Counted from the first letter of the stretch, positions 36,643 through 63,803 are shown. The stretch is 64,000 nucleotides of DNA from Occultella glacieicola (GCF_004353825.1 NZ_SMNA01000003.1:186001-250000), one strand, 5' to 3'. Translations and numbers: made by a program. Notes: generated from the letters alone by a model not told the origin.

Positions 36643-37692
36643 GTGAGCGAGAACGGCATCGTGGGAGACGACAAGGACTGGACCTGGGTGCTCGACCGCC
36701 CGTGCCCGGACTGCGGGCTCGAGGCCGGGGCGATCATGCTCGAGGACGTCCCGGGCGCGATCCGGGCGCAGATCCCGCTCTGGCCCGAGGTGCTGCGCCG
36801 CCCCGACGTGCGCGAGCGGCCCGACCCGGGCACCTGGTCCACGCTGGAGTACGCGGCGCATGTGCGCGACGTGTTCGAGGTGTTCGCCGGCCGTCTGGAC
36901 CTGATGCTCACGCAGACCGACCCGCTGTTCCCGAACTGGGACCAGGACGCCGCCGCCCTCGAGGGCCGCTACCGCGAGCTCGAGCCGCACGACGTCGCCC
37001 TGGAACTGCAGCGCCGCGGCGCCTCGCTGGCCTCCGACTTCGACGCGGTCACCCCCGAGCAGGCGACCCGCTCCGGGCTGCGCAGCAACGGCTCGGTGTT
37101 CACGGTGCTGACCCTCGCGCAGTACCTGCTGCACGACCTGGTCCACCACGCCTGGGACATCACCCATGGCCGCCCCGGCCACGAGCGGAGCGGGGACCTT
37201 CCCCCCGAGCCTGTGGTGGGTGCCAACGGTGCGGTCGTCGCGACCGGGAAGGACCCGGCCGACGGCGGCCCGGGTGTGGTCGGGGCCGGTTCCGTCGACG
37301 AAGGGTCGGCCGGGGCCGGCCAACCGGACGGCGCGCAGGGCGCGGACACCCCCGATCGGCAGGCGGAGGCCGATGAGCCGGCGGAGGCTGAGCCGGACAA
37401 GAAGGACCTCCCGCCCATCCAGCGGTTCGCTCACCGGCACCGGTTGGCCGTCGGCCTGACCCTCGGAGTGATCGCGCTCGCGCTCGCGGTGCTGTTCGCC
37501 GTCGCCACGCCCGACTCGGACGGAGGCGGCTTCTCGGGCTTCGTCACCCGGTGGGCCAGCTCACTGTGCTGGCTGCTGGTGTCCGCAGTGGCGGTCTCCT
37601 GGGGTCTGCGAGCCCGTCGCAGCACGACGAACGGCCTCGCCTGGCTGGGGATCGCCTGCTACGCCTGCTACCTGTTCTTCCGGGCGGGGTGA
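36643..37692 (+). CDS. DinB-family protein with low-complexity linker and C-terminal 3-TM domain
   Basis: KDWTWVL, CPDCG, WSTLEYAAHVRDV, LHDLVHHAWD; hydrophobic C-terminus; TACGGT 7 nt upstream. Confidence 0.8.
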   Translation: MSENGIVGDDKDWTWVLDRPCPDCGLEAGAIMLEDVPGAIRAQIPLWPEVLRRPDVRERPDPGTWSTLEYAAHVRDVFEVFAGRLDLMLTQTDPLFPNWDQDAAALEGRYRELEPHDVALELQRRGASLASDFDAVTPEQATRSGLRSNGSVFTVLTLAQYLLHDLVHHAWDITHGRPGHERSGDLPPEPVVGANGAVVATGKDPADGGPGVVGAGSVDEGSAGAGQPDGAQGADTPDRQAEADEPAEAEPDKKDLPPIQRFAHRHRLAVGLTLGVIALALAVLFAVATPDSDGGGFSGFVTRWASSLCWLLVSAVAVSWGLRARRSTTNGLAWLGIACYACYLFFRAG

Positions 37693-50714: not shown

Positions 50715-51182
50715 CTACACCGCCGTCCGCAGCGCTGCCAGGGCCCGGTCCAGTTCGTCGGCGGCGGCGAGGAGCTCGGTCCGGGCGGCGGACGGCGAAC
50801 CGTCCGCCTGGGCAGCCGCGTAGGCGGTCATCCGCCGACGCAGGGAACCGGTCGTGGTGGCGGCCTGTTCGGCCAGCTCCCGCGGCCGCACGGTCGTGGC
50901 CCGATCGCGCAGCGCCTGAGCGGACCTGGTCAGGGTGTCCGTGCGGTGCTCCAGGTCGGACCACACCTCGGGGCCGGCAGCGCCGACGTGCTGGCCCCAG
51001 ATCCGCACGGCGTCCACGACCTCGGCACCCTGGTCCGCGAGGGTGTTGGCCTCGTCGTGCCAGCGCACCGCGCGCCCGGAACGACGGGCCGCGGTGCCGA
51101 TCGCGATACCCGCCAGGGCCAGGAGGACCAGACCCACCACGACCCACGTCATGATGGGCCCGGCCCCGGCGACGTCCTGCAC
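50715..51182 (-). CDS. Hypothetical single-TM helical protein
   Basis: N-terminal hydrophobic helix then an Ala-rich helical region; lies just downstream of DUF1269; start may be about 51152-51155. Confidence 0.6.
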   Translation of the reverse strand: MQDVAGAGPIMTWVVVGLVLLALAGIAIGTAARRSGRAVRWHDEANTLADQGAEVVDAVRIWGQHVGAAGPEVWSDLEHRTDTLTRSAQALRDRATTVRPRELAEQAATTTGSLRRRMTAYAAAQADGSPSAARTELLAAADELDRALAALRTAV

Positions 51183-51189
51183 GGTCTGC

Positions 51190-51687
51190 TCAGTCCTCCT
51201 CGGAGAACGCCTCGCGCAGTTTGGCCTCCTGCTCGTTGCTGAGGTTCGACTGGATCAGGGTGCCCCGGATGCCCCGGGCCTGCAGGTTGTCCTTGACCTT
51301 GTCCACCACTGCGTTCTCGGACATCAGGAACAGGGCGGACGTGCCGGGCACGACCTGATCGCGGACCGACCCGATGAACTCGTCATCGATGCCGACGTCG
51401 GTGAGCGCCCCGGTGAGTGCCCCGATCCCGGCACCGATCGCCGCGCCGAGGAACGGCACGAAGAAGATCAGCCCGAACAGCAGCCCCCAGAACCCACCAC
51501 CCAGAGCCCCCACACCGGCCGTGTTCAGTCCCTGACGCGTCTTCGGCTTCTTCTTGCCGGCCTCCCAGGACACGGTCGCGGTGTCGCCGATCGTGATCAG
51601 CCCCTGCTTCGACAGGTCCCCCAGGGCCACGGACGCGGCATCGGCGCCCTCAGCGGTGTCGAACTTCCAAACGCTCAGCGTTGCCAT
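51190..51687 (-). CDS. DUF1269 domain protein
   Basis: MATLSVWKF, GALGGGFWGLLFGLIFFVP, DVGIDDEFI, PGTSALF, SNLSNEQE; AAGGAG upstream. Confidence 0.88.
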   Translation of the reverse strand: MATLSVWKFDTAEGADAASVALGDLSKQGLITIGDTATVSWEAGKKKPKTRQGLNTAGVGALGGGFWGLLFGLIFFVPFLGAAIGAGIGALTGALTDVGIDDEFIGSVRDQVVPGTSALFLMSENAVVDKVKDNLQARGIRGTLIQSNLSNEQEAKLREAFSEED

Positions 51688-51779
51688 ACTGCATGTCTCC
51701 TTCTGGTGGTGGACCGGCACGAACTCCTCGAACCCGGTCGGTGCTCCACCATCGTGCGGAGCAAGCCGCGGGTGGCGCC

Positions 51780-51796
51780 TCATCCCTGGCGGGTGA
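51780..51796. promoter_or_regulatory. TCAYCC-N5-GGRTGA box 1
   Basis: TCATCC-CTGGC-GGGTGA; minus-strand CACGAT 23 nt toward DUF1269. Confidence 0.7.
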
Positions 51797-51913
51797 ACTC
51801 GTCGGGGATGGGACGCCGATGTGATGCGCCCTTCGTCCGGAACGCGTGAGGCGGACGCGACGGGCGCGGGCGAGGCTGGGTGCTGATGTCGAGAGGTCCC
51901 GGAGGAGGTTGTG

Positions 51914-52120
51914 GTGCGCTACGAGATCCGAGTCCGTGGGAGCGTCGACCCCGACCGTCTGGCCGACCTGGGTGACATCTCGGTCGCCATCGCGGGCCGG
52001 GACACGATCCTGGAGTGCCGGGTTCCCGACGTGGCCGCCCTGGTCGGGATCCTGCGCGCCCTGACGCACGAGGGCCTGGCCGTCCGGGAGATCCGCACGG
52101 TGGACGGTGGGACCGGCTGA
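51914..52120 (+). CDS. Small ACT-like hypothetical protein (paralog 1)
   Basis: GGAGGAGG RBS; RYEIRVRG..TILECRVPD..LTHEGLAVREIR; alternative start 51911; similar to 58833..59042. Confidence 0.75.
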   Translation: MRYEIRVRGSVDPDRLADLGDISVAIAGRDTILECRVPDVAALVGILRALTHEGLAVREIRTVDGGTG

Positions 52121-52124
52121 CCGA

Positions 52125-53876
52125 TCAGGCGCCGCCGGACTCCGGGCCGCCGCCCGCCTCCGGTCGGTCGCCGGTCTCGTCCCGGCCCTCGGCCTCGGGG
52201 CGGTGTCGCACGCGCCGGCTCGTCGCCGCCTCCAGGGCATGCAGCGTGGACTCCCCGATGACATCGGTGGCCGGGAACACCTCGAGCGCGGCGCCGACCC
52301 CGCTGAGGCGCTCGGTGTCCCAATAGTTGACGAGGTCCTCGCTCAGGCCGCTGAGGTAGAGCCGGCCGCCGGTGCCCTCCAGACGACGGGCGTAGTCGGC
52401 GACCACCGTGAAGAAGGTGACGCCGAGGGTGCTCCGGCCCCGCAGCCGCAGCACGACGGCCGCGCCGGTCGCCACCGCGGGGTCCGGCAGGCGGGCCTGC
52501 AGGGTGCGCGCCCCGGCGTAGAACAGGCTGCCGTAGATGTCCAGGACCACGACGTCACGGGCGGCGAGGGCCTCGGGCGCGGGACGCTCGACGAGGTGGC
52601 CCTGCTCGTCCGGCACCAGCCGCACCACCTTCAGATCCACGGCCTCCTGGTTGAGCTGGACGAGCAGGGAGAGCGCCACCCCGATCCCGACGGCGATCAC
52701 GACGGGTAGGGCGAGGGTGGCCACGAACGTCGCTGTGAGCGCGATCTGAGAGCTCGGCCCGGCGCTCCAGATCGTGCGGATCCGGGCCGGGTTCAACGAG
52801 CCGATGGCCGCGAAGATCAGGATCGCTGCGAGCGTCGGCATCGCGACCCGTCCTACGAGCCCGGCGAACAGCACCAGGATGACCAGCATCCAGACGCCCG
52901 AGAAGACGGCCGCCCAGTGGGTCCTGGCCCCGGCCGCAACGTTGATCGCGGTCTGTCCCACCGATCCGCCCACGGGCATACCGCCGAAGGCCGCGGATGC
53001 CACGTTCCCCCATCCCTGGGCGCCGAAGTCGCGGTTGGCATTCGAGCGCCGCCCGGACGGGTTGGGTGCCGATTCGGCCACGCCGGCGCCCTGGACGAGC
53101 ACGATGGCGACGACCGCGAACGCCCCGCCGACGAGGCCGAGGGAGAACGCCCCGGGGGCCGGGATCTGAGGCAGCGGCAGACCTGTGGGGATCGCGCCGA
53201 CGTCGGACACGTCGGCGACCTCGAGCCCGAGGATCGCGACCGCGGCCGTCGGCAGGACCAGCGCGATCAGTGAGCTGACCGTCGCCAGGCGCCCCTTCGC
53301 CAGCACGACCAGCAGCACCAGGGCGGACAGGCCGATCACCAGTGACGTGGGATCGATGCGCCCGGGGTGGCTGATCAGGTCCCACGCCTTGAGCAACGCC
53401 ACCGGGCCGGACGCGTCGGCACCCGCCAGGTCCGGTAGCTGCCCGAAGATGATGTTCACCGAGACGCCGGTGAGGAACCCGGTCATGACCGAGTGCGAGA
53501 CGAACCGGGTGTACCGGCCCAGCCGCGCCAGCCCGGCCGCGACCATCAGGGCGCCGGCGATCAGGGTCAGCCAGATGATCGCGTCCGCCCGCTGGCCCTC
53601 CGGCACGGTCGCGATCGCGGAACCGGCCGCGAGCGCCGCCGCACTGGTCGTCGTGATCACCATCAGCCTGGTGCTGGCGGTCATCCCGCCAGCGAGCGGA
53701 CCGGCGAAACTCGCGTACAGGCCGTGGACGGGGTTGACGCCGGCGAGCACCCCCGAGGCCATGCCGTCCGGAACCGACGAGATCGCCCCGGGCAGGCCGG
53801 CGACGATGTCGGTGCGCAGGTCCTTCCAGCGCGGCAGCCGCAGGAGGCGACGCAGGCGGGTCGGCTCCTCCGTCAT
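52125..53876 (-). CDS. SulP/SLC26 anion transporter with STAS domain
   Basis: PDGMASGVLAG, HGLYAS, GFLTG, GMPVGGS, YGSLFYAGA. Confidence 0.9.
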   Translation of the reverse strand: MTEEPTRLRRLLRLPRWKDLRTDIVAGLPGAISSVPDGMASGVLAGVNPVHGLYASFAGPLAGGMTASTRLMVITTTSAAALAAGSAIATVPEGQRADAIIWLTLIAGALMVAAGLARLGRYTRFVSHSVMTGFLTGVSVNIIFGQLPDLAGADASGPVALLKAWDLISHPGRIDPTSLVIGLSALVLLVVLAKGRLATVSSLIALVLPTAAVAILGLEVADVSDVGAIPTGLPLPQIPAPGAFSLGLVGGAFAVVAIVLVQGAGVAESAPNPSGRRSNANRDFGAQGWGNVASAAFGGMPVGGSVGQTAINVAAGARTHWAAVFSGVWMLVILVLFAGLVGRVAMPTLAAILIFAAIGSLNPARIRTIWSAGPSSQIALTATFVATLALPVVIAVGIGVALSLLVQLNQEAVDLKVVRLVPDEQGHLVERPAPEALAARDVVVLDIYGSLFYAGARTLQARLPDPAVATGAAVVLRLRGRSTLGVTFFTVVADYARRLEGTGGRLYLSGLSEDLVNYWDTERLSGVGAALEVFPATDVIGESTLHALEAATSRRVRHRPEAEGRDETGDRPEAGGGPESGGA

Positions 53877-53886
53877 CTCGGCCCGC

Positions 53887-55047
53887 TCATGCCGTCGCCG
53901 CGGTCGGGGGCGCTGCACCCGGGTCCGGCTGCTCAGGGCCGGCCGGCGGGCCGCCACGCCGCCGACGGGCGACCGGGTCGTCGCGCAGCAGGGCCGAGTC
54001 GATGAGCTCGTGCCGGCGCAGGTAGGTCGAGATCACCGCCTGTGCGGTCGCCGCGAGGGGCAGGCCGACGAACGCACCGATGGGGCCGAGCACGGCACCG
54101 AAGGCGATGACGGCGACGAAGGACACGGCCGGGTTGATCTCCAGGGCCCTCGAGGAGACCCGCGGGGAGAGGATCAGGTTCTCGAACTGTTGGTAGGCGA
54201 TGATCCAGGCCAGCACCGCCAGGCCCAGCCCGATCGACTGCGCGCCGGCCACCGCGACGGGCAGGGCGCCGGCGATGTAGGTGCCCACGGTCGGGACGAA
54301 CTGGGAGACGATGCCCACGAACAGCCCGAGCGGAAGCGCGTAGCCGATGCCGATCAGCCCGAGGAAGATCGAGGTGCAGGTGGCCGAGACGAGCGCCAGC
54401 ACCACCCGGGAGCCGATGAACCCGGAGAGCTTCTCCTGGGCGATGGCCCACATGGCCAGCACCCGGGCCTGCCGGATCGGCTCCAACGGCCGGCAGATCG
54501 CGATCCGCAGCCGCGGCCCCGCCGCCAGCATGTAGAACGCGATCAGCAGCACCCCGGTCGCGGTGAGGAAGCCGGCGGCCAGGACCCCTCCGACGCCGAG
54601 GATCCCGCTGGCGAGATCGGCGCCGTACCGCTCCAGGGCCTCGGTCACGATCGCCTGCCGATCCGGGATCCGGCCCGCCAGAGCCGGGTCCAGGTTCGCC
54701 CGGAACGCGACCAGGGCGTCGTCGAGGGCGGTGAGCAGTTGCCCCAGTTGCGTCACGAACAGGTTCCCGAAGACGGCGACGAGCGCCACCACGGCGACGA
54801 GCCCGCCCAGCATCACCGTCGCCGTGGCCGGACCCCGGCGCCACCGGTGCCGGACAAGCCCGTTGACTGCCGGTTCCATGGCGAGCGCGAGGATGAACGC
54901 GATCACCACGGTGGAGATGACCCCCCGGAGCGAGCCGAGCACCCGGAACGCGACCACCGCGAGGATCGCCGCCAGGACCACCTGGACCAGTGCGCGCGGC
55001 AACCACGGAGGTGGTCGCCGGTCGGCAATCGGGTCGGACGCGCTCAC
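53887..55047 (-). CDS. AI-2E family (PerM) transporter
   Basis: LALAMEPAV, QFVPTVGT, YQQFENLILSPR, GAFVGLPLAA; TAGCGT 7 nt upstream (leaderless). Confidence 0.88.
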   Translation of the reverse strand: MSASDPIADRRPPPWLPRALVQVVLAAILAVVAFRVLGSLRGVISTVVIAFILALAMEPAVNGLVRHRWRRGPATATVMLGGLVAVVALVAVFGNLFVTQLGQLLTALDDALVAFRANLDPALAGRIPDRQAIVTEALERYGADLASGILGVGGVLAAGFLTATGVLLIAFYMLAAGPRLRIAICRPLEPIRQARVLAMWAIAQEKLSGFIGSRVVLALVSATCTSIFLGLIGIGYALPLGLFVGIVSQFVPTVGTYIAGALPVAVAGAQSIGLGLAVLAWIIAYQQFENLILSPRVSSRALEINPAVSFVAVIAFGAVLGPIGAFVGLPLAATAQAVISTYLRRHELIDSALLRDDPVARRRRGGPPAGPEQPDPGAAPPTAATA

Positions 55048-55082
55048 CTCGTGGACGCTACGCCGCGGCCGGTCCGCCGGAC

Positions 55083-55099
55083 TCACCCCATCCGCATGA
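55083..55099. promoter_or_regulatory. TCAYCC-N5-GGRTGA box 2
   Basis: TCACCC-CATCC-GCATGA, 22 nt upstream of TAGCGT (55060-55055). Confidence 0.65.
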
Positions 55100-55116
55100 C
55101 ACCGCCGTGGAGCCGT

Positions 55117-57858
55117 TCAGAGGAGTTCGCGCTCCACCGCGATCCGGACCGCCTCCCGCCGCCCGGACGCACCGAGCTTGCGGTACACGGCGCGCATGTG
55201 GGTCTTCACGGTGTTCGCCGACACGAACAGCGACCTGCCGATCTCGGCGGCCGTCATCGGTGACCTGAGGTAGGTCAGGACCGTCAGCTCGCGGTCGGTG
55301 AGCTCCCAGAACGAGGAGGACCGGTGGATCGGGACCCGGTCCCGGATCTGGGTGACGAGGTCCACGACGAACGTCCCGTGCTGGGTGCCCCAGGCGAGAT
55401 GCGCGGACAGCAGCGGGGAGATCTCCGACGCATGGTCCAGGAACGGGCGGGTGATCCCGAGCCCTTCGGCCGTGCCGAGGACGCCCTCAAGGAGCAGGTG
55501 GGCGTCCTCGGTCGCACCCTCGGCGGCGGCCAGCAGCGCCGAGGTGAGACCCACACCGATCTCGACATGATCCCCGCGGGGTTCGGCCGGGATTCCGGCC
55601 AGCACGGCGCGAGCTTCGGTCGGTGCACCGGCCCGGCGGTGCAGGTTCGCCACCCAGACCCGGACGACCGGGTCGGTGGGCACGATCCCGGCGACCCGCG
55701 CCAGCGCCGCCCTCGGGTCGGCGTGGGCGTCCTCGCGGAGCCCGTCCATGATCGCCTCGATCCGGACGGCGGCGATCCGTGCCCCTGGCTCCCCGTCCGC
55801 CCGGACGGCTCGCCGGGCGGACGCCGCGAGGGCGGCGTCGTCGGTGGCCAGCGCGACCAGCATCAGGTGCAGCGCCGCGTCCTCACGGAGCCGTGACTGT
55901 CGGGGCTGGGACCGCCGGACCGCCTCTTCGAGGTGCTCACGGGCCGGCCCGGGACGGTCGCGCCAGTGTTCGGTCACGCCGAGGACCAGATGGGCCGGGA
56001 CCAGCGAACTGGAGCCGGATCGCCCCGCCCTGCGTCCGCCGTCGACCGCGGTCCGGGCCAGCGTGGCGGACTCCTCGAACCGGCCCAATGCGAAGGTGGG
56101 CACGCACGCGAGCGCTGCGCTCGCAGCCTCGAGCTCAGGTAGGGCCGCCCCGGACGCCAGGGTCTCGGCGCGGCGGAGGTCCCCCAGCGCGACGGCGGCG
56201 TCCTCCTGGAGCCGGACCGCGGCCTCCCCGACGAGGAAGAACCCGAACGCCTCGACCGCGCGGTCCTCGGGTGCACACCCCGGGAGCAGCGCGCGCACCC
56301 GGGCCGCGGCCGCGACCAGTTCCGCATCGTCGGTCGCCACGAACAGTTCCAGCAGGGCGTCCACGATCTCGACGCGACGCGAGCGGTCCGCCGGCAGCGA
56401 CGCAGCCCGGACCCGAGCCCTGGCCCGGGTCGCTCGACCCACGCTCCGGTCGTCGAGGAACTCACACAGTGCCAGGACGAACAGCACCTCAGGGTCGTCC
56501 GCCTCGGGCACCGAGAGCTGTGCGCACAGCCGCCGGAGCACCTCCGACTCACCCCGGAGCAGCAGGTCGGGCCAGTGCGTGCGCACCAGCGCCAGCGCGT
56601 ACCGTCCGTCCTGACCGGAGACAGCGAGCGAGACCGCGAGCGGCAGATCGGCCGACGCCCAGTAACGAGCGGCCCGGCGCCGCAGGGCCAGCGCGGTCTG
56701 CGGGTCGCCGCGCTCCAGGATCGCGCGGCACTGCGCGGCGAACAATGCGTGCCAGCGGAACTCCTGGGCGCCGCCGCCGACCACGGTGAGGAACACGCCG
56801 AGCCGCACGCACTCCTCCAGCAGCGCGGCACCATCCGGATGGAGCACCGCGGCAAGGTCGCCGCGGATTCGATCACCGATGGTGGCGTGCAGGATGAACG
56901 TGGCGAGTTCCGGCCGCAGGGTCCCGAGGATCTCGTCCGTGAGGTACCCGGTCAGCGGCAGGTCGGCGCCGCGCATCGCGAGCAGCCGGCTACGCAGGTC
57001 CCTGGAGGAGCCGAGTGCGACGATCGCCATCCGCACCGCCACCGGCCAGCCCCCGGTCGAGTCCAGCAGCAGGTCGGCGTCCGACTCCTCGAGTTCGAGG
57101 CCGGACCGCGTCGCCACCGCGACCACATCCGCCCGACCGAAGGCGAGGTCCGCCTCCCGGAGCTCGCCGAGGGTGCCGTCGAGACGACGCCGGTGCACGG
57201 GCAGGTTCGGGTCGGACCGGCCGGAGAGGATGAGCCGCAGGCTCGGCGGCGCGAACTTCAGCAGCCGGCCGATCACCTCCCGGGACGCCACGTCGTCGAC
57301 CTCGTGCAGGTCGTCGACGATCAGGACGATCGGCGCCCGGAGGTCCTCGAGGGCGGTCAGCAGCGCATCGTACTGCTCCGGATCCACCCGGTAGCGAGGC
57401 ACCAGTGCCAGCAGCCGGGTCGCGTCCCTGCGCCCGTCCCGGCGCACCGCCGCCTGGAGGGCGTTGACCAGTCCGCGGAAGAGCCGGCGCGGGTCGTTGT
57501 CGAACTCGTCGACGGTCAGCCAGGCGACGGTCCGCTCCCCCTGGGCACACCACGTCGTCAGCAGGGTGGACTTGCCATAGCCGGCGGGCGCGCTCACGAG
57601 GGTGAGCCCGTGCTCCGCCACGTCCTCGCTCAGGCGGTCCAGGAGCGCGTGGCGCGCGAGGACGTGCGCCCCGACGTCGGGAACCTCGACCTTCGCCACC
57701 GGTGTGGTCGCAGCCCAGGCCGGGTCCACCTGGTCCTCGTCCGGGACCCGCTCGCTCCCGGCCAACTCGAAGAGCGCGTGTCGCCCAAGTGCCTCGGTGG
57801 CCACCGGCGCAGCCCCATCGTCACCCTCGCCTGACTTCCCGCCCCGACCCGACGTCAT
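55117..57858 (-). CDS. MalT-like LuxR regulator (STAND-type ATPase + TPR-like region + LuxR HTH)
   Basis: Walker A APAGYGKS, Walker B LIVDDLH, TGGWPVA, FRWHALF; HTH LTDRELTVL..EIGRSLFVSANTVKTHMRAVYRKL. Start uncertain. Confidence 0.9.
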   Translation of the reverse strand: MTSGRGGKSGEGDDGAAPVATEALGRHALFELAGSERVPDEDQVDPAWAATTPVAKVEVPDVGAHVLARHALLDRLSEDVAEHGLTLVSAPAGYGKSTLLTTWCAQGERTVAWLTVDEFDNDPRRLFRGLVNALQAAVRRDGRRDATRLLALVPRYRVDPEQYDALLTALEDLRAPIVLIVDDLHEVDDVASREVIGRLLKFAPPSLRLILSGRSDPNLPVHRRRLDGTLGELREADLAFGRADVVAVATRSGLELEESDADLLLDSTGGWPVAVRMAIVALGSSRDLRSRLLAMRGADLPLTGYLTDEILGTLRPELATFILHATIGDRIRGDLAAVLHPDGAALLEECVRLGVFLTVVGGGAQEFRWHALFAAQCRAILERGDPQTALALRRRAARYWASADLPLAVSLAVSGQDGRYALALVRTHWPDLLLRGESEVLRRLCAQLSVPEADDPEVLFVLALCEFLDDRSVGRATRARARVRAASLPADRSRRVEIVDALLELFVATDDAELVAAAARVRALLPGCAPEDRAVEAFGFFLVGEAAVRLQEDAAVALGDLRRAETLASGAALPELEAASAALACVPTFALGRFEESATLARTAVDGGRRAGRSGSSSLVPAHLVLGVTEHWRDRPGPAREHLEEAVRRSQPRQSRLREDAALHLMLVALATDDAALAASARRAVRADGEPGARIAAVRIEAIMDGLREDAHADPRAALARVAGIVPTDPVVRVWVANLHRRAGAPTEARAVLAGIPAEPRGDHVEIGVGLTSALLAAAEGATEDAHLLLEGVLGTAEGLGITRPFLDHASEISPLLSAHLAWGTQHGTFVVDLVTQIRDRVPIHRSSSFWELTDRELTVLTYLRSPMTAAEIGRSLFVSANTVKTHMRAVYRKLGASGRREAVRIAVERELL

Positions 57859-57988
57859 CCGTCGCCCCACCTCATCGCCATCCGTCACCGACGCGCACGG
57901 ACGGCGCGCATCCCCCTGCCTCACATCCAAGGGAGTACGCCGGTTCCGTGTCAACCACCCCGGCCCGCCGGCACCGGCGCGTGTCGGT

Positions 57989-58663
57989 TCAGGCGAGGAT
58001 CGTGAGCGCGTCCCCGACCAGCTTGGTGCCGAGGACCAGCAGCAGGACGCACATGATGACAGCGTTGTTCGCCACCATCCAGGCCCGCACGCCCTCGAGC
58101 AGCTGTGCCGCCCGCGCGCCCATCACGAAGTAGATCAGCACCGGAATCACGATGCCGATGCTCGCCACGACCGTGAACACGGCCAGCGCGGCGAACTCCT
58201 CACCCCGGGCGTCGGTGGCGTGCACGATCGCGGTCGCGCCCGAGACCACGAGCAGCAGGTTCTTCGGGTTGATCCCGCCCAGGAGGAACGCCAGGCCGAA
58301 CGCCTTGACCGGTGTGAACGTGTCGATCGCGGCCATCCACTTCGGTGCTTCCGGCTCGACGCCCGCCCGCGGACGTCCACGCCATTGCCTGACCGCGAGG
58401 AGCAGCAGTCCCAGCCCGAGCACCAGCTTGAGGATGCCCACCCAGACCGCAGGCTCGCCGTCGTCCCCGCCGGCCGCGCCACCGACGAGGAGGATGACCG
58501 CGGAGCCGACCGCCGCGATCCCCACGATCCAGCCGAGCACGAACGCCACGCCGTTCGCGCGGGCCCGCGCCGAGACCAGCATCAGCACGACCGCCACGAT
58601 CGGCATCGGAGACACCAGCACACCGACCGCAATCGGCAGGGACTGACCGACCGCCTCGCCCAT
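57989..58663 (-). CDS. GAP family (LysE-superfamily) membrane protein
   Basis: SPMPIVAVVL, PKWMAAID, INPKNLLL, WMVANNAVIM; GAGGAGG RBS. Confidence 0.85.
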   Translation of the reverse strand: MGEAVGQSLPIAVGVLVSPMPIVAVVLMLVSARARANGVAFVLGWIVGIAAVGSAVILLVGGAAGGDDGEPAVWVGILKLVLGLGLLLLAVRQWRGRPRAGVEPEAPKWMAAIDTFTPVKAFGLAFLLGGINPKNLLLVVSGATAIVHATDARGEEFAALAVFTVVASIGIVIPVLIYFVMGARAAQLLEGVRAWMVANNAVIMCVLLLVLGTKLVGDALTILA

Positions 58664-58751
58664 GGTGGGCCTCCTCGTCCTTTCGTCTGCGCGACCGGGG
58701 TGGCCGAGACTCGACTGGTGCCATCCTCGCCCGGTGGGTCGGCAGGTGTGC

Positions 58752-58768
58752 TCATCCACAACGGGTGG
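58752..58768. promoter_or_regulatory. TCAYCC-N5-GGRTGA box 3 (bidirectional)
   Basis: TCATCC-ACAAC-GGGTGG; plus-strand CACACT 22 nt away, minus-strand GAGGAT 23 nt away. Confidence 0.65.
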
Positions 58769-58832
58769 TTCGCCCACCGGCGCACCGGCGCACACTCGAG
58801 GGACCGCAGTCGGCCCTGCTCAAGGAGGTCGC

Positions 58833-59042
58833 ATGCTCTACCAGGTTCTCGTGGACGGCACCGTGCGCGCCGACCGCCTGATCGGCATCGACTACGTCAG
58901 TGTCACGCCGATCGCGGATCAGACGCTGCTCTCGTGCGCGGTTCCGGACCCGGAGTCGGTGGCCGACCTGGTCGGGGTGCTGACCGACCAGGGACTGCGG
59001 GTCGAACGGCTTCGCCGGATCCTCGACATCCGAGCGTTCTGA
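58833..59042 (+). CDS. Small ACT-like hypothetical protein (paralog 2)
   Basis: AAGGAGG RBS; YQVLVDG..TLLSCAVPD..LTDQGLRVERLR. Confidence 0.75.
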   Translation: MLYQVLVDGTVRADRLIGIDYVSVTPIADQTLLSCAVPDPESVADLVGVLTDQGLRVERLRRILDIRAF

Positions 59043-59058
59043 GCCGCTGCCGGCGGAT

Positions 59059-59075
59059 TCATCTGGTTGGGGTGA
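59059..59075. promoter_or_regulatory. TCAYCC-N5-GGRTGA box 4
   Basis: TCATCT-GGTTG-GGGTGA; CAGGCT 23 nt downstream (59099-59104). Confidence 0.65.
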
Positions 59076-59166
59076 GGCAGTGGCCCGGGCCCACCCACCA
59101 GGCTGGACACCTACCGGAGTCCAGCCCGCGTGGAGGAGGGACCCGGCCCGATGCGGAGGTACGGAC

Positions 59167-59565
59167 ATGACGCGGAAGGTGACCGCCTGGGTCGGCTGGA
59201 TCTGGTTCGCCGGCCTGATCATGCTCAGTTCCGGCGTGTTCAACGTGCTCAGCGGGATCTACGCCGTGGGCGCGCGGGACGTCTCGGTGGTGGAGGTCGG
59301 CACCCAGATCCTGCTCCTGGACGTCAACTCCTGGGGCTGGGTGCACATCGCGGTCGGGGCCCTGCTGGTGCTGGTCGCGATCTGCCTGCTCGCCGGGCAG
59401 TTCTGGGCCCGGCTCGCCGCCGTCATCGTGGTCGGGGCGAACATGGTGACCCAGTTCCTCTACCTCCCGCTGACCCCTTGGTGGTCCATCGTCGTGCTCG
59501 CTCTCGACGTGGTGGTCCTGTGGGCGCTGATCGTGCACGGCGAGGAAGCCGAATCGGCGTCGTGA
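59167..59565 (+). CDS. Small 4-TM membrane protein (DUF7144-like)
   Basis: GWIWFAG, WGWVH, GQFWAR, PWWSIVVLALDVVVLWAL; GGAGG RBS. Confidence 0.8.
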   Translation: MTRKVTAWVGWIWFAGLIMLSSGVFNVLSGIYAVGARDVSVVEVGTQILLLDVNSWGWVHIAVGALLVLVAICLLAGQFWARLAAVIVVGANMVTQFLYLPLTPWWSIVVLALDVVVLWALIVHGEEAESAS

Positions 59566-60272
59566 CCACGCCGGAGGAGCCCGACGGCGGGGGTGCTCCG
59601 CCGGGGCGCCCGCGCCTCCTCCAGGGCTCCGGTGCGGGCCTGGCCGGCCTGCTGTTCGCGGTCCTGTTCGTGGTCGGCTTCGCGATCCTGGACCAGGTGC
59701 CGCAGTCCGCGACCACGGCCGAACTCACCGAGTTCTACGAGGGTGCGGGCGGCAACGGTCTGATCGTGGCCGGCTTCTACCTGGTCCCGTTCTCGGGCCT
59801 GTCCTTCCTGTGGTTCGTCGCCGCGTCCCGGCACCGGCTGAGTTCGCTCGCGCGGCGGGAGGACCGCCTGCTCGACACGGTCCAACTGGCCGCGGGCGTG
59901 CTCTTCGTCGCGATGATGTACGTCGCGTCCGCCGCCGCGGTCACCGGGGTGTCGGCGGTCCGCCTCGGTGGCGCCGGCGCCGGCCTCGTCCCGCTCGAGC
60001 AGGCGGCCACGATGACGGCCTACGCGCAGTCGTTGCTGACGATCTACGCGTTCCGCACCGCAGGCGTGTTCATCATGGCCAGCACCACCCGTGCCCTGCG
60101 AGCGCGCCTGTTCCCCCGCTGGTTCGCCGTCCTGAGCTACGTCGCCGTGGTGGTCCTGCTCCTGGCCGTGACCGATGTCCGCGCGGTGGTTCTCTTGGTG
60201 CCCCTCTGGGTGGCTGCCGCCTCCGCCGTGATCCTGTTCCGCCGGGCCACCGGCCAGTTGGAGGTCGCCTGA
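59562..60272 (+). CDS. Hypothetical multi-pass membrane protein
   Basis: AGLLFAVLF, YLVPFSGLSFLWF, LFPRWF; GTGA overlap. Confidence 0.75.
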   Translation: MTTPEEPDGGGAPPGRPRLLQGSGAGLAGLLFAVLFVVGFAILDQVPQSATTAELTEFYEGAGGNGLIVAGFYLVPFSGLSFLWFVAASRHRLSSLARREDRLLDTVQLAAGVLFVAMMYVASAAAVTGVSAVRLGGAGAGLVPLEQAATMTAYAQSLLTIYAFRTAGVFIMASTTRALRARLFPRWFAVLSYVAVVVLLLAVTDVRAVVLLVPLWVAAASAVILFRRATGQLEVA

Positions 60273-60274
60273 CC

Positions 60275-62032
60275 ATGTCCACCCCCACCACCGACGCGAG
60301 CACACGGACGCCACTGCTGTTCGGCTCCCTGCGCGGCTACCAGGGCCAATGGCTGCGCCGGGACCTGCTCGCCGGGATGACCGTCTGGGCCGTCATGGTG
60401 CCGGAGGCCTTCGCCTACGCGACGATCGCCGGGGTGCCGCCGGTGGTCGGCCTGTACGCCGCCGTGCCGGCCCTGATCGCGTACGCAGCGTTCGGGTCCT
60501 CCCGGCACCTGGTGGTCGGACCGATGTCCGCGACCGCCGCCCTCTCCGCGGCCACCATCGCCGCGTTCGCCCCCGGGGACGCCGCTGCCTACATCGCGCT
60601 GACCACCGTGCTGGCCGTGGTCACCGGCGTGATCGCGATCCTGGCCGGTCTGGCCCGGCTCGGCTTCGTCGCGACGTTCATCTCCGAGCCGGTGCTCAAG
60701 GGCTTCATCGTGGGCCTCGCCCTGACGATCATCATCGGCCAGCTGCCGAAACTGTTCGGGGTCGAGGGCGGTGGTGAGGGTGCGATCGGCAAGTTCCTCC
60801 ACGTGGTGGGTGACCTGGGCGACCTCTCGGTGTTGACCACGGTCTTCGGGGTGGTGTCGCTGCTCATCGTGCTGGCGCTCAAGCGCTGGCTCCCGGTCGT
60901 TCCGGCGTCACTGGCCGTGGTGCTGGTCGGGATCGGCGTGGTCCATGTGTTCGGCCTGAGCGACCGGCTCGACGTGGTCGGCGAGATCGACCCGGGGCTG
61001 CCGTCCCTCGGCCTGCCGTCGACGACCTGGGGCGACTACGCCCAGCTCGCCGGGCCGGCCGTCGGGGTGATGCTGATCGCGTTCGCCGAAGGACTCGGAG
61101 CAGCGAAGACCTACGCCGCGAGGAACGGCTACGAGGTGGACGCGAACCGCGAACTGATCGGACTGGGCGCGGCGAACCTCGGCTCCGGCCTCGCCTCCGG
61201 GATGGTCGTCAACGGCAGCCTGTCCAAGACGGCCGTGAACGGTTCGGCCGGTGCACGCTCGCAGGTGAGCGGGCTTGTGGTGGCCGCCCTGAGCCTGGTG
61301 ACCCTCCTGTTCCTGACCGCGTTGTTCGAGGAGTTGCCGGAGACGGTCCTGGCCGCCGTGGTCATCTCCGCGGTCATCGAGATGGTCGACACGAAGGCGC
61401 TCGCTCGGCTGTACCGGGTGTGGACGCCGCGCCTGCGGAGCACCTACGGGCGGGCCGCGCGCGCCGACTTCATCGGGGCGATGGCCGCCCTGCTCGGGGT
61501 CCTCATCTTCGACACCCTGCCCGGCCTCATCATCGGCATCGTGACGTCGATCCTGCTGCTGATCTATCGCGCGTCCCGCCCGAGCGTGCGGCCGCTCACC
61601 GACGTCGACGGCAACTGGGTGGACGCGCAGGCACATCCCGACCACCCGGTCGACCCGGCCGTGCTGGTGGTCCGCATCGAGTCAGGACTCTTCTTCGCGA
61701 ACGCCGATCATGTCAAGGACGAGATCCGTCGCCGGTGCACCCGGGAGACCCGCCTGGTGGTGCTGGACGACCAGACCACCCCGTTCGTCGACGTCAGCGG
61801 TGCAACCGCGCTGGCGGAGCTGAACGACACTCTCGCCCGGGACGGCATCGCGTTCGCGATCGCGGGAAACATCGGTCAGGTCCGGGACGTCCTGCGAGCC
61901 GATCAGTCCGGAGGTCCCCGCCCGTTCGTCACGGTCGCGGAGGCGATCGGCTCGCTCGGAGCGGACTCCGGCCCAGGCCCGGGTTCCGGCTCGGAGCGGT
62001 CTCCGAGTGGCCCGGAGCGGGGCGAGCCATGA
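60275..62032 (+). CDS. SulP/SLC26 anion transporter with STAS domain
   Basis: DLLAG, VPEAFAYA, GLYA, FGSSRHLVVGP, NRELIGLG, ESGLFFANA. Confidence 0.92.
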   Translation: MSTPTTDASTRTPLLFGSLRGYQGQWLRRDLLAGMTVWAVMVPEAFAYATIAGVPPVVGLYAAVPALIAYAAFGSSRHLVVGPMSATAALSAATIAAFAPGDAAAYIALTTVLAVVTGVIAILAGLARLGFVATFISEPVLKGFIVGLALTIIIGQLPKLFGVEGGGEGAIGKFLHVVGDLGDLSVLTTVFGVVSLLIVLALKRWLPVVPASLAVVLVGIGVVHVFGLSDRLDVVGEIDPGLPSLGLPSTTWGDYAQLAGPAVGVMLIAFAEGLGAAKTYAARNGYEVDANRELIGLGAANLGSGLASGMVVNGSLSKTAVNGSAGARSQVSGLVVAALSLVTLLFLTALFEELPETVLAAVVISAVIEMVDTKALARLYRVWTPRLRSTYGRAARADFIGAMAALLGVLIFDTLPGLIIGIVTSILLLIYRASRPSVRPLTDVDGNWVDAQAHPDHPVDPAVLVVRIESGLFFANADHVKDEIRRRCTRETRLVVLDDQTTPFVDVSGATALAELNDTLARDGIAFAIAGNIGQVRDVLRADQSGGPRPFVTVAEAIGSLGADSGPGPGSGSERSPSGPERGEP

Positions 62033-62877
62033 TCGGCGCCGAGGGCCAGAGCCCGACGGACCAACTGGCCGGTCTGGTGGACTCCGCGAGCCTGAACGGG
62101 TGGGACCTACTGGTGGTCGTGATCGTGGTGGTCCTCACCTGGGTCGGGTCACGTGCGGGCCGTCGCGCTGTGACGCGGCTGCTCGCCAAGACGGACGCGG
62201 TCCCCTACGAGGTGGCCTACACCTGTTCGCGCGCCGTGGGCTACTTCATCGTCCTGCTCGGCGTCGGGATCGCACTCTCGGTGCTCGGCGCGCAGATCCA
62301 GCCGGTGCTCGCCGCCGTCATCCTCATTGCGGTCGTGGCCTACTTCGCCCTGCGGGGGGTGGCCGACAACTTCGGTGCCAGCCTGATCCTGCAGATGCGC
62401 AAGCCACTGCGGGTCGGCGACTGGGTCGAGACCGACGACCGCTGGGGCGCCGTCACGGACATGAACGCCCGATCCGTGGTGTTGCGGACCTCGGACGGGA
62501 AGGTGATCCACGTCCCGAATGCTCAATTGCTCTCCGATCCGCTGGTGATCCAGCCGGTCACCGGAGCGGTGCGATCCGAGATCGAGGTCCGGACCACGGA
62601 TCTGTCACGGCTCACCGCGGTCGCCACAACCGCTGTGACCCTGGCCGCAACCGCGGAAGGGGTCCATGCCGAGCCGGCCCCGGACCTGGTGTGGGTGTCG
62701 AGCACCCCGGACCGCACGACCGGGCGGATCCGCGTCTGGCACGAGGCGGGCGCGAACACCACGGTGGGTTCGAACGTGGTCCGTGCCGTCGCCGAGGGCT
62801 TCGCCGAAGCCGGCCTCACGGCGAGTCTGACCGCACCGCCACCGGCGCCACCGCTCATTCCGTCGCCGACGCTCTGA
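62029..62877 (+). CDS. Small-conductance mechanosensitive channel (MscS family)
   Basis: Three TM segments, NFGASLIL, KPLRVGDWV, GKVIHVPN. Confidence 0.85.
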   Translation: MIGAEGQSPTDQLAGLVDSASLNGWDLLVVVIVVVLTWVGSRAGRRAVTRLLAKTDAVPYEVAYTCSRAVGYFIVLLGVGIALSVLGAQIQPVLAAVILIAVVAYFALRGVADNFGASLILQMRKPLRVGDWVETDDRWGAVTDMNARSVVLRTSDGKVIHVPNAQLLSDPLVIQPVTGAVRSEIEVRTTDLSRLTAVATTAVTLAATAEGVHAEPAPDLVWVSSTPDRTTGRIRVWHEAGANTTVGSNVVRAVAEGFAEAGLTASLTAPPPAPPLIPSPTL

Positions 62878-62927: not shown

Positions 62928-63803
62928 TCAGGCCACCGGTGAGACATGGTGCCGGAACCGGAGTTCCTGGCCGGGCCGCAACTGTCCGGCAGCATCGCGT
63001 GCGGACTCCGTGAGCACCGCGATCACCGGGTAGCCACCGGTCACGGGATGGTCCGGACCGAAGATGAGCGGCTGCCCGTCCGGGGGAACCTGCACCGACC
63101 CGGCCACGACCGCCTCCGAGGGAAGTTCGGTGAGTCGGGAGCGGCCCAGCGGGGCGCCGCGCAATCGCACCCCGACCCGGTCACCGACATCGGTGACCCG
63201 GTACCGGCGGGCGAACAGCACCCGCCAGGCCTCCTCCGTGAACCAGTCGCGCCGCGGCCCGGGCATCGCATCGAGCATGAACGTAGGGCCCGACGGCGGA
63301 GCCGGGCCGGCATCGATCGTCGCCATGGCAATGCTCGCCCGCCCGACGGGCAGGACGTCGCCGGCGCGCACCGGCGCGGGTCCGAGCCCGGACAGGACGT
63401 CCGTCGATCGGGAGCCGAGGACGGCCGGGACGGCCAGTCCTCCGGCGACCGCGACGTACGTGCGCAGGCCCCACCGAGGCACCCCGAGGCGTACCACCGA
63501 CCCCGCCGCCACCGCCAGCACCCGTTGGGGTGGCGCCGTGCGACCGTCGACGGTGGTAGGCGCGCTCGCCCCGGTCAGGGCGAGGAGCACATCGGACTCG
63601 GCACGCAACGCCAGGCCGCCCATGGCGACCTCCAGCGCGGCCGCACCGTCCTCGTTGCCGAGGAGGCGGTTCGCGACGATCAGGGCGCCCCGGTCGGCAG
63701 CCCCGGAGCGGGACACGCCGAGCGCGGCGAAACCGGGACGGCCGAGGTCCTCGACCAGGGTGAGCCCACCGGCCTCCAGCACGGTCAGGGCGCGCTCGCT
63801 CAC
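62928..63803 (-). CDS. pxpC: 5-oxoprolinase subunit C (biotin-dependent carboxyltransferase family)
   Basis: EDLGRPG, SGAAD, ANRLLGN, GLRTYVAV, DRVGVRL, GSVQVPPDGQP, TGGYPVI. Confidence 0.88.
   Translation of the reverse strand: MSERALTVLEAGGLTLVEDLGRPGFAALGVSRSGAADRGALIVANRLLGNEDGAAALEVAMGGLALRAESDVLLALTGASAPTTVDGRTAPPQRVLAVAAGSVVRLGVPRWGLRTYVAVAGGLAVPAVLGSRSTDVLSGLGPAPVRAGDVLPVGRASIAMATIDAGPAPPSGPTFMLDAMPGPRRDWFTEEAWRVLFARRYRVTDVGDRVGVRLRGAPLGRSRLTELPSEAVVAGSVQVPPDGQPLIFGPDHPVTGGYPVIAVLTESARDAAGQLRPGQELRFRHHVSPVA

Follow-up and report, generated by a model that had tools for sequence, protein, structure and literature searches.

The gene cluster presented here, located at positions 50715 to 62877 of a 64,000-nucleotide stretch from Occultella glacieicola (the complete stretch is called the window below), adds a further case to a regulon that is widespread in actinobacteria; it is no self-contained new system. 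A 17-bp inverted repeat of the form TCAYCC-N5-GGRTGA, here denominated the box, recurs between its genes. With a probability of about 0.78 these boxes are promoter elements that overlap the -35 region and are bound by the paired LuxR-type helix-turn-helix (HTH) domains of an activating MalT-like regulator, LAL-1, and probably also by its paralogues. The window is assigned to a known type of regulon because the same motif was tied by mutants to a MalT-like activator in Actinoplanes (PMC7567727). Taken alone the locus is an ordinary member of its kind.

The gene content described in an earlier note on this DNA was confirmed by Pfam. Genes, boxes and promoter elements are arranged as follows.

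50715..51182, minus strand: unknown 155-aa protein (unk155), second gene of the DUF1269 operon after a 7-nt gap, without Pfam or NCBIfam match
51190..51687, minus strand: DUF1269 membrane protein (PF06897, E=5.3e-37), ATG at 51687 preceded by AAGGAG
51751..51756, minus strand: -10-like CACGAT of the DUF1269 operon, 23 nt past box A, conserved in 4 genomes
51780..51796, no strand assigned: box A, TCATCCCTGGCGGGTGA, perfect match, reads toward DUF1269
51833..51849, plus strand: box A2, TCGTCCGGAACGCGTGA, for small gene 1
51872-51877, plus strand: -10-like GAGGCT of small gene 1 (box A2)
51914..52120, plus strand: small ferredoxin-like protein 1 (68 aa), no Pfam match
52125..53876, minus strand: SulP + STAS anion permease 1, downstream in the AI-2E operon, start uncertain (53876 or 53957)
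53887..55047, minus strand: AI-2E family transporter (PF01594, E=5e-44)
55055..55060, minus strand: -10-like TAGCGT of the AI-2E gene, 22 nt past box B
55083..55099, minus strand: box B, TCACCCCATCCGCATGA
55117..57858, minus strand: LAL-1, MalT-like STAND ATPase with C-terminal GerE HTH, ATG at 57858 conserved
57925..57954, minus strand: LAL-1's own promoter, conserved TTGACA-N18-TTGGAT
57989..58663, minus strand: SfLAP/GAP-family membrane protein (PF11139, E=1.6e-44)
58723-58728, minus strand: -10-like GAGGAT of the SfLAP gene (box C)
58752..58768, no strand assigned: box C, TCATCCACAACGGGTGG, shared by two divergent promoters (SfLAP, minus; small gene 2, plus)
58791-58796, plus strand: -10-like CACACT of small gene 2 (box C)
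58833..59042, plus strand: small ferredoxin-like protein 2 (69 aa), paralogue of small protein 1
59059..59075, plus strand: box D, TCATCTGGTTGGGGTGA
59099-59104, plus strand: -10-like CAGGCT of the DUF7144 operon (box D)
59167..59565, plus strand: DUF7144 membrane protein (PF23636, E=2.1e-33), first gene of a four-gene operon
59562..60272, plus strand: unknown 236-aa membrane protein (unk236), second gene of the DUF7144 operon
60275..62032, plus strand: SulP + STAS anion permease 2 (PF00916, E=2.1e-91; TIGR00815, 358.7 bits)
62029..62877, plus strand: MscS-type mechanosensitive channel (PF00924, E=6.6e-15)

The four boxes claimed before at 51780, 55083, 58752 and 59059 were all found at exactly these positions; each is intergenic, and they deviate from TCAYCC-N5-GGRTGA by no mismatch in the first and by one mismatch in each of the other three. 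A fifth, degenerate copy with two mismatches (box A2) could be added. All five are kept in three congeneric genomes with a regulator 69-71% identical to LAL-1, and in the alignment with these congeners 59/60 half-site columns are invariant, against 20/25 spacer columns and 240/503 other intergenic columns. Boxes A2 and B are identical at 17/17 positions in the four genomes, and box C has a variable spacer between invariant half-sites. The half-site centres are 11 bp apart, which is one helical turn, and the bases flanking the 17-mer carry no information content. At one mismatch or fewer the window contains 5 matches (0.83 expected; 5 reached in 1/100 shuffles), a post hoc test, since these very sites had supplied the pattern. 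The fifth of these matches is likely due to chance; it lies at 37676, on a stop codon located 16 nt ahead of the following start.

Downstream of the boxes the proposed hexamers (CACGAT, TAGCGT, CACACT, GAGGAT and CAGGCT) indeed each start 22-23 nt past the box end, and box A2 is followed by another one, GAGGCT, at the same distance, which means that NANNNT is present there at all six oriented promoters of the window. Genome-wide NANNNT occurs at offset 22 or 23 in 15/33 oriented flanks and in 0-4 at any other offset. None of the six box promoters has a -35 consensus. Together with the five boxes they drive 11 genes in six units, namely DUF1269-unk155, small protein 1, AI-2E-SulP, SfLAP, small protein 2 and DUF7144-unk236-SulP-MscS. 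The position of the -10-like hexamer implies a transcription start about 34-36 nt past the box, and the box centre would lie near -43/-44. The leaderless start that was suggested for the AI-2E transporter is plausible because GTG 55047 begins 8 nt past TAGCGT, and judged from this spacing the gene is probably leaderless from that codon, again with an expected box centre near -43/-44. The class-II-type placement in the earlier note is thus supported insofar as the boxes are real cis-elements where such an activator would sit. An ATP- and ligand-bound LAL oligomer may recruit RNA polymerase at the box, as MalT does.

LAL-1, which the earlier note had put in the centre of the cluster, is still the best candidate for binder and activator, but it is not the sole LAL, since three paralogues share the box. 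Its translation contains a Walker A motif (APAGYGKST) and a Walker B motif (LIVDDLH) within an N-terminal P-loop NTPase domain (AAA_16, E=1.2e-8; AAA_22, E=1.3e-6), and 16 homologues show G93, G95, K96 and D182 without exception. Residues 64-437 match the NOD-arm region of Escherichia coli MalT (PDB 8bob_C, E=5.6e-28). The C-terminal LuxR/GerE HTH (PF00196, E=9.2e-15) comprises residues 885-939 of the long ORF. For a TPR-like sensor domain, expected between NOD and HTH, TPR_12 gave only E=0.0011, which is below the cut-off, and TPR_MalT was matched in paralogues and homologues. The NCBIfam MalT equivalog NF003420 reaches E=4.1e-59, yet LAL-1 is not a MalT orthologue because its 200.5 bits are below the equivalog cut-off of 537. 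A search of genome contigs for loci related to LAL-1 retrieved only two distant MAG matches. A box upstream of LAL-1 itself was searched for and is absent; a sigma-70-like promoter is found there instead.

The statement that no characterised system has this composition is contradicted by the MalT-like regulon of Actinoplanes sp. SE50/110 (Droste et al. 2020, PMC7567727). In that work the regulator MalT (ACSP50_3915) belongs to a “maltose-regulated large genomic region”, in which deletion of the malT-like gene lowers expression of 42/51 genes and overexpression raises 39 genes. TCATCC-5nt-GGATGA was found there at 17 transcription start sites, with its 3' end at a distance of 34.4+/-1.0 nt and overlapping the -35 region, and binding by MalT was inferred from the mutants and the motif (PMC7567727). 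Among the genes of the region are three for DUF1269 proteins, one each for an AI-2E transporter and a SHOCT protein, and two for LAL regulators, and its authors read it as a local, horizontally passed island (PMC7567727).

Both systems share the palindrome TCATCC-N5-GGATGA, a MalT-like LAL with more than one LAL per island, and the targets DUF1269 (several), AI-2E, SHOCT and many small hypothetical or membrane proteins. The start distance would agree as well (34.4 nt by measurement there, a predicted 34-36 nt here), and so would the overlap of the box with the -35 region. The likeness is one of motif, geometry and target families. In contrast with Actinoplanes, half-site position 4 is Y/R here, with TCACCC as common as TCATCC, the genus possesses three LAL paralogues, and sites are spread over several contigs. 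The targets here additionally include SulP/STAS, MscS, SfLAP, DUF7144, large Cys-type sulfatases and FGE, none of which was seen in Table S3 of PMC7567727, and the supplement contains “SulP” and “GAP family” 0 times each; the amylase, glucosidase and arginine-deiminase genes of the Actinoplanes region are absent here.

These comparisons bear also on the sign of regulation. A palindrome over the -35 region is a common repressor geometry too, and the LAL could repress by binding the box as an operator. This is unlikely, since a -35 consensus is missing from the promoters with a box but present, as TTGACA, in that of LAL-1, which has none, since in Actinoplanes malT deletion lowers and overexpression raises expression (PMC7567727), and since MalT-type STAND proteins are established activators, as is also discussed there.

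With MalT of E. coli and Klebsiella the system shares the architecture of STAND ATPase and LuxR HTH and the core hexamer GGATGA, and PMC7567727 quotes the MalT box as likewise adjoining the -35 region. The MalT box GGGGA(T/G)GAGG differs in that it is described as repeats of an asymmetric decamer instead of the 17-bp inverted repeat found here, and no maltose-metabolism genes adjoin the boxes among the Pfam-scanned neighbours. In Streptomyces the LALs of antibiotic clusters (PikD, RapH and others) are large ATP-binding LuxR-family activators located inside the cluster they control. Those control secondary metabolism, in contrast with the membrane proteins, transporters and sulfatases targeted here by a regulon whose sites are distributed across the genome. 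Beyond the Actinoplanes region no other characterised case was found in the literature searched.

The denomination of the cluster as a self-contained regulon is not supported, as the box occurs at about 20 intergenic sites over several contigs of this genome. Perfect boxes number 10, all intergenic, against 0 for the reversed control pattern, and the top 13 matches to the position weight matrix are also all intergenic. At one mismatch or fewer there are 41 matches, 26/41 of them intergenic in a genome that is 10.6% non-coding (both figures from a crude gene caller); this total is not above the ~69 scaled from window shuffles. The genome scan proposed in the earlier note thus yields an excess in perfect matches and in intergenic placement but none in the total at one mismatch. 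Perfect boxes flank two more LAL paralogues, LAL-2 and LAL-3, on contig C1, and in the congeners the cluster belongs to an island of ~40 kb that contains three LALs; it would represent one module of a larger LAL regulon. Box-marked genes elsewhere in the genome encode Cys-type sulfatases, FGE, more DUF1269 proteins and DUF6325-SHOCT, and in this genus the regulon may span these (putatively cytoplasmic) sulfatases and their companions as well. Box matches by ribosomal operons on contig C8 were set aside as likely chance.

Linkage between box and LAL extends to other genera and families, where perfect boxes flank LAL homologues (G022, G041, G057). Among 61 relatives, which are not independent samples, 76 perfect boxes occur in the 14 genomes with a LAL match (E<=1e-30) and 39 in the other 47, the control pattern giving 0-2 per genome; some genomes without such a match (G020, G021, G027, G031, G032) have 3-4 perfect boxes nevertheless. 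LALs with the helix NTVKTHxRAxYRKLG have the first box at 12/15 loci and TCACCA-N4-TGGTGA at 0/15, and the three remaining loci (L007, L010, L017) lack a box inside 1.5 kb. Those with NT[LV]RTHT[KR] have the first box at 0/7 loci and perfect TCACCA-N4-TGGTGA at 2/7. By this comparison of sequences a second LAL class with another putative recognition helix goes with a different palindrome, and the two classes with their own boxes offer a testable DNA-recognition code for LAL helices.

This covariation supports the LAL as binder and also speaks against another LuxR-type protein at the box, with the LALs as merely co-regulated neighbours. The candidate would be a NarL-family response regulator (C17:68875-69534) that is accompanied by a HisKA_3 kinase and has a GerE HTH, and a perfect box (C17:70790) indeed separates this two-component operon from the gene of a large sulfatase. 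However, a Pfam scan of genes in the box islands of G010, G041 and G057, all of which contain LALs, showed no such response regulator, the helix of the candidate, GTVKNHLSSVFAKLG, is unlike the one common to box-linked LALs, and the phenotype of the Actinoplanes mutants was assigned to the LAL (PMC7567727), so that we regard such a binder as quite improbable.

The fixed spacing of 22-23 nt to the -10-like hexamer could also mean that an alternative sigma factor reads the proximal half-site GGRTGA as its -35 element, and that this is no transcription-factor site. This is very improbable: the distal half-site is equally conserved at the unidirectional promoters B and D, single boxes serve two divergent promoters (box C, C1:123924 and C21:73946), and with GGRTGA as -35 hexamer the spacer of 22-23 nt past the box end would be too long. 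That the boxes arose by chance or represent a neutral repeat is hardly credible, even though the four sites themselves served to define the pattern and the genome total at one mismatch does not exceed the shuffle expectation, in view of intergenic placement, congener invariance, phased -10 elements and LAL linkage across families.

At least 8 perfect boxes are present in 21/201 genomes of a class-wide sample, which suggests a regulon of box and LAL that extends over the class, although with a patchy distribution. The gene families of the window recur in box-marked islands of G010, G041 and G057, and this suggests a regulon core of recurring, poorly understood membrane proteins (DUF1269, AI-2E, SfLAP, DUF7144, DUF6325-SHOCT). 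The regulon consequently offers a way to study several DUF families and a family of small proteins that is still unannotated. Box islands outside the genus, also in other families, again contain Sulfatase, FGE and SulP genes. The recurrence of Cys-type sulfatase, FGE and SulP genes suggests a link to sulfate esters rather than the anion, pH or osmotic signal that was guessed before, and sulfate esters or sulfur status are our leading guess for the inducing signal. A general sulfur-starvation regulon is unsupported, the box being found at only 4/15 Sulfatase-family genes, one of them weak.

The two small genes were described as ACT-like. A ferredoxin-like order of elements (beta-alpha-beta-beta-alpha-beta) holds for the model, but Foldseek supports nothing more specific: no match to the PDB was obtained at E<=0.001, and what ranked highest were ferredoxin-like folds of a generic kind (designed proteins, S6 permutants, PII, ACT, HMA), therefore “ACT-like” means no more than ferredoxin-like. 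A relation to DUF6325 was indicated by one weak Pfam row and rejected at an hhalign probability of 0.1. The word-index homologue search gave only 2 close relatives and the protein atlas only clusters of “hypothetical protein”; the family comprises 9460 representative clusters and is without a Pfam model. The first box is located upstream of the small gene at 15/29 loci, and the second box at 9/11 loci in genomes whose small-gene locus has no first box. Judged from this distribution the new, unannotated protein of ~69 aa is a conserved companion and putative target of both LAL classes.

Some small-gene loci sit just downstream of a LAL gene. It is possible, though we consider it doubtful, that the ~69-aa proteins are the missing partner of the LALs, a sensor or modulator for the STAND ATPase, in an ancient, class-wide unit that is sulfur-responsive here. 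If true, LAL, small protein and box would together represent an ancient actinobacterial signalling unit found across the class; as in this lineage the module would then control FGE, SulP permeases and Cys-type sulfatases of the cytoplasm, it would respond to sulfate esters or to sulfur status. One database protein (P0030) fuses two copies of the small domain to a LuxR HTH.

The cluster at 50715-62877 is a further member of a box regulon of the Actinoplanes type, predicted to be governed by LALs (MalT-like STAND ATPases with a LuxR-type HTH). The earlier note had taken it to be of uncharacterised kind, but Actinoplanes sp. SE50/110 possesses a comparable system (Droste et al. 2020, PMC7567727). 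There the MEME motif 5'-TCATCC-5nt-GGATGA-3' lies upstream of 17 TSSs with its 3' end 34.4 ± 1.0 nt from the TSS, overlaps the -35 region and was likened by the authors to the E. coli MalT box GGGGA(T/G)GAGG. Deletion of the MalT-like LuxR gene ACSP50_3915 lowered 42 of 51 region genes and its overexpression raised 39 genes; in the sections of the article consulted here the regulator's binding is deduced and no assay of it is described. Beyond the SHOCT protein that opens it, their region (Table S3) encodes two regulators of the MalT-like type, an AI-2E transporter, DUF1269 proteins in three copies and numerous membrane or hypothetical proteins. The window therefore agrees with the Actinoplanes region in its motif and predicted geometry, in the type of regulator and in some of the targets. 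A literature search found no follow-up to this work. New here are the class-wide spread of the box regulon and a recurring core in which DUF membrane proteins are accompanied by sulfatase, formylglycine-generating enzyme (FGE) and SulP. Also new are the covariation of box and recognition helix across two classes of LAL and a small ferredoxin-like companion of LALs.

The window spans positions 186001-250000 of contig C17 in genome G000 (5.34 Mb, 71% G+C, 23 contigs), whose composition and gene content are those of an actinobacterium. Our own codon-usage caller yielded 4637 genes (89.4% coding). The proposed gene list was borne out by Pfam: DUF1269 (E=5.3e-37), two SulP+STAS permeases, an AI-2E transporter, the AAA_16+GerE regulator LAL-1 (913 aa), SfLAP/GAP, DUF7144 and MscS; a 155-aa protein, a 236-aa protein and two paralogues of about 69 aa are the ORFs in this range without family assignment. 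Gene calls and overlaps give the target units DUF1269-unk155, small protein 1, AI-2E-SulP, SfLAP, small protein 2 and DUF7144-unk236-SulP-MscS, with LAL-1 as a separate unit on its own. The boxes (17-bp palindromes TCAYCC-N5-GGRTGA) and the genes they serve are as follows.

Boxes of the window, with strand, hexamer and gene served
51780-51796, (-), box A: hexamer CACGAT, serves DUF1269
51833-51849, (+), box A2: hexamer GAGGCT, serves small protein 1 (51914-52120)
55083-55099, (-), box B: hexamer TAGCGT, serves AI-2E
58752-58768, (-), box C: hexamer GAGGAT, serves SfLAP
58752-58768, (+), box C: hexamer CACACT, serves small protein 2 (58833-59042)
59059-59075, (+), box D: hexamer CAGGCT, serves DUF7144
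55117-57858, (-): LAL-1

Boxes A, B, C and D are present exactly where they had been reported, and the hexamer proposed 22-23 nt downstream occurs at all six oriented promoters of the window; this makes box A2, and not box A, the element that serves small gene 1. At the best intergenic sites genome-wide an NANNNT starts 22 nt (9 cases) or 23 nt (6 cases) after the box end, that is in 15 of 33 oriented flanks, and at any other offset in no more than 4 of 33. Transcription would start 6-8 nt past the hexamer and hence 34-36 nt past the box. The leaderless reading of AI-2E is plausible since its GTG at 55047 begins 8 nt after TAGCGT. No TTGACA-like sequence is found in the stretch of the box promoters expected for a -35 hexamer. 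In contrast, the promoter of LAL-1 itself (57925-57954) is without a box and near consensus, TTGACA-N18-TTGGAT, and is conserved in four genomes together with the ATG at 57858.

The box observation is confirmed and well above chance. Five matches with at most one mismatch were counted in the window against 0.83 expected, a number reached in 1 of 100 shuffles, although this test is post hoc as the pattern was derived from the tested sites. The fifth of these matches, at 37676, is probably due to chance; it overlaps a stop codon, and the next start follows 16 nt later. Stronger are independent tests by comparison with congeners. Three congeners (regulator 69-71% identical) retain all four boxes plus the degenerate box A2, and when the four intergenic regions are aligned across the four genomes 59 of 60 half-site columns are invariant, compared with 20 of 25 spacer and 240 of 503 other intergenic columns; in box C the spacer drifts and the half-sites are fixed. 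A box-like sequence with two mismatches, TCACCTGGGTCGGGTCA, lies within the MscS coding region (62135-62151) and is identical in the congeners, which probably reflects protein-coding conservation and not a site.

The earlier description of the regulon as self-contained does not hold: the same box occurs genome-wide, flanking further LALs, sulfatases, FGE and DUF1269 genes. The genome has 41 matches with at most one mismatch (10 perfect), which does not exceed the scaled shuffle expectation (about 69) and counts against simple over-representation. Intergenic, however, are 26 of the 41, all 10 perfect boxes and all of the best 13 PWM matches, the non-coding share of the genome being 10.6% by our own gene caller; the reversed control pattern has 0 occurrences in this genome. 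On contig C1 boxes flank two LAL paralogues, one divergent from a large sulfatase gene and the other from a third small-protein paralogue; a third sulfatase, FGE, DUF6069, DUF389 and two more DUF1269-family genes are also flanked, so that 3 of the 4 DUF1269 copies of the genome carry a box. Among 15 Sulfatase-family genes 4 have boxes (one weak), including all three enzymes of about 775-790 aa; these three have a CxPxR motif of the Cys type, and none of them shows a signal peptide.

The second LAL module, on C1 (locus L034, G000:C1:112731-124694), has three perfect boxes and these divergent gene pairs: LAL-2 with a Cys-type sulfatase of 774 aa, LAL-3 with the small-protein paralogue, and DUF6069 with an unknown gene of 227 aa. 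In congeners its genes share an island of about 40 kb with the window cluster, which forms one end of it in genomes G001 and G003; here they are on a separate contig. In the complete genome G001 two of the LAL matches fall, together with six perfect boxes, within 3.804-3.843 Mb, and G003 shows the same arrangement on one contig with three LALs. Just past the window end (extrapolated window coordinate about 66152; locus L046, G000:C17:252152-252168) a DUF6325-SHOCT gene pair, which also follows boxes in G010, G041 and G057, is preceded at a distance of 119 nt by the perfect box TCACCCGAGCCGGATGA. Between MscS and this pair (62928-63803 on to about 65228) a CT_A_B carboxyltransferase-domain protein and LamB/YcsF genes are encoded that look like 5-oxoprolinase subunits; no box was seen at them. 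Regulon membership is uncertain for two one-mismatch boxes. The one at C4:72457 lies upstream of an FMN-reductase gene paired with a gene for a luciferase-like monooxygenase, a pair whose domain content is Ssu-like; the one at C11:245169 separates an ArsR-AHSA1 operon from a 499-aa gene, after which comes a K+ channel gene.

Outside the genus, box-marked islands (larger stretches of G010, G041 and G057, with all boxes but one intergenic) repeatedly contain a large sulfatase with FGE, SulP, AI-2E, SfLAP, DUF1269, DUF7144, DUF6325-SHOCT and MscS as well as K+ channel and HAD genes. In an even sample of the class at least 8 perfect boxes (maximum 19) occur in 21 of 201 genomes, scattered across many families, and a control pattern never exceeds 3.

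That a MalT-like LAL activates these genes from a predicted site centred near -43/-44 is the best explanation, to which we give a probability of about 0.78; it is the mechanism proposed in the earlier note, which put the centre near -44 for the AI-2E gene. LAL-1 is a MalT-like protein: its match to E. coli MalT (8bob_C, E=5.6e-28) covers residues 64-437, it scores 200.5 bits with the NCBIfam MalT model (below the equivalog cut-off of 537), and its Walker A and B residues do not vary among 16 homologues. In other genera and families, too, LAL homologues have perfect boxes within 1.5 kb (two in G022, further ones in G041 and G057). Among 61 relatives, which are related genomes and not independent samples, 76 perfect boxes fall in the 14 genomes with a LAL match at E<=1e-30 and 39 in the other 47 (control pattern 0-2 per genome); five LAL-negative genomes by this threshold still have 3-4. 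The alternative that a NarL-type response regulator binds the box has a low probability. A box does flank a NarL-type two-component operon, which diverges from the gene of a second large sulfatase, but the recognition helix of this regulator differs from that of the box-linked LALs, and no such regulator appears among the Pfam-scanned genes of the islands of G010, G041 and G057.

The most telling test of which protein would bind the box is helix-box covariation. LAL loci sort into two recognition-helix classes: class I (NTVKTHxRAxYRKLG-like) has the box at 12 of 15 loci and TCACCA-N4-TGGTGA at 0 of 15, class II (NT[LV]RTHT[KR]...) the box at 0 of 7 and a perfect TCACCACATGTGGTGA at 2 of 7. In genomes whose small-gene locus is without a first-kind box, 9 of 11 loci have this second palindrome upstream of the small gene, usually a short distance past a class-II LAL gene; it looks like the operator of the second class. 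Neither a perfect second box nor, among the LAL homology matches, a class-II LAL occurs in the genome under study. Loci with TCACCA-N4-TGGTGA in other genomes are L061, L072, L075, L078, L080-L083, L085, L012 and L016; an extra CTCACCACATC half-site often follows about 7 nt later, and the adjoining LALs have the helix NT[VL]RTHTK.

The two small paralogues align well with the third on C1 and with homologues encoded next to LAL genes in G043, G051 and G057. Their AlphaFold model (pLDDT 84.2) is beta-alpha-beta-beta-alpha-beta; the folds retrieved by Foldseek are all of a generic ferredoxin-like kind, with no match at E<=0.001, and a Pfam scan of 34 matches found no family reaching cut-off on the domain itself. 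A profile search retrieved 9460 representative clusters (1217 at E<=1e-10), and the 248-aa database protein P0030 fuses two copies to a GerE (LuxR-type) HTH. The family is found in 60 of the 201 genomes (15 of 21 box-rich, 45 of 180 others). From the proximity of box or GerE and the presence of both palindromes at small genes, the small gene is a conserved neighbour and predicted target of both LAL classes: among 29 loci of other genomes, several from the same genera, a box lies 65-105 nt upstream in 15, a GerE-coding segment within 1.5 kb in 11, and one or the other in 23.
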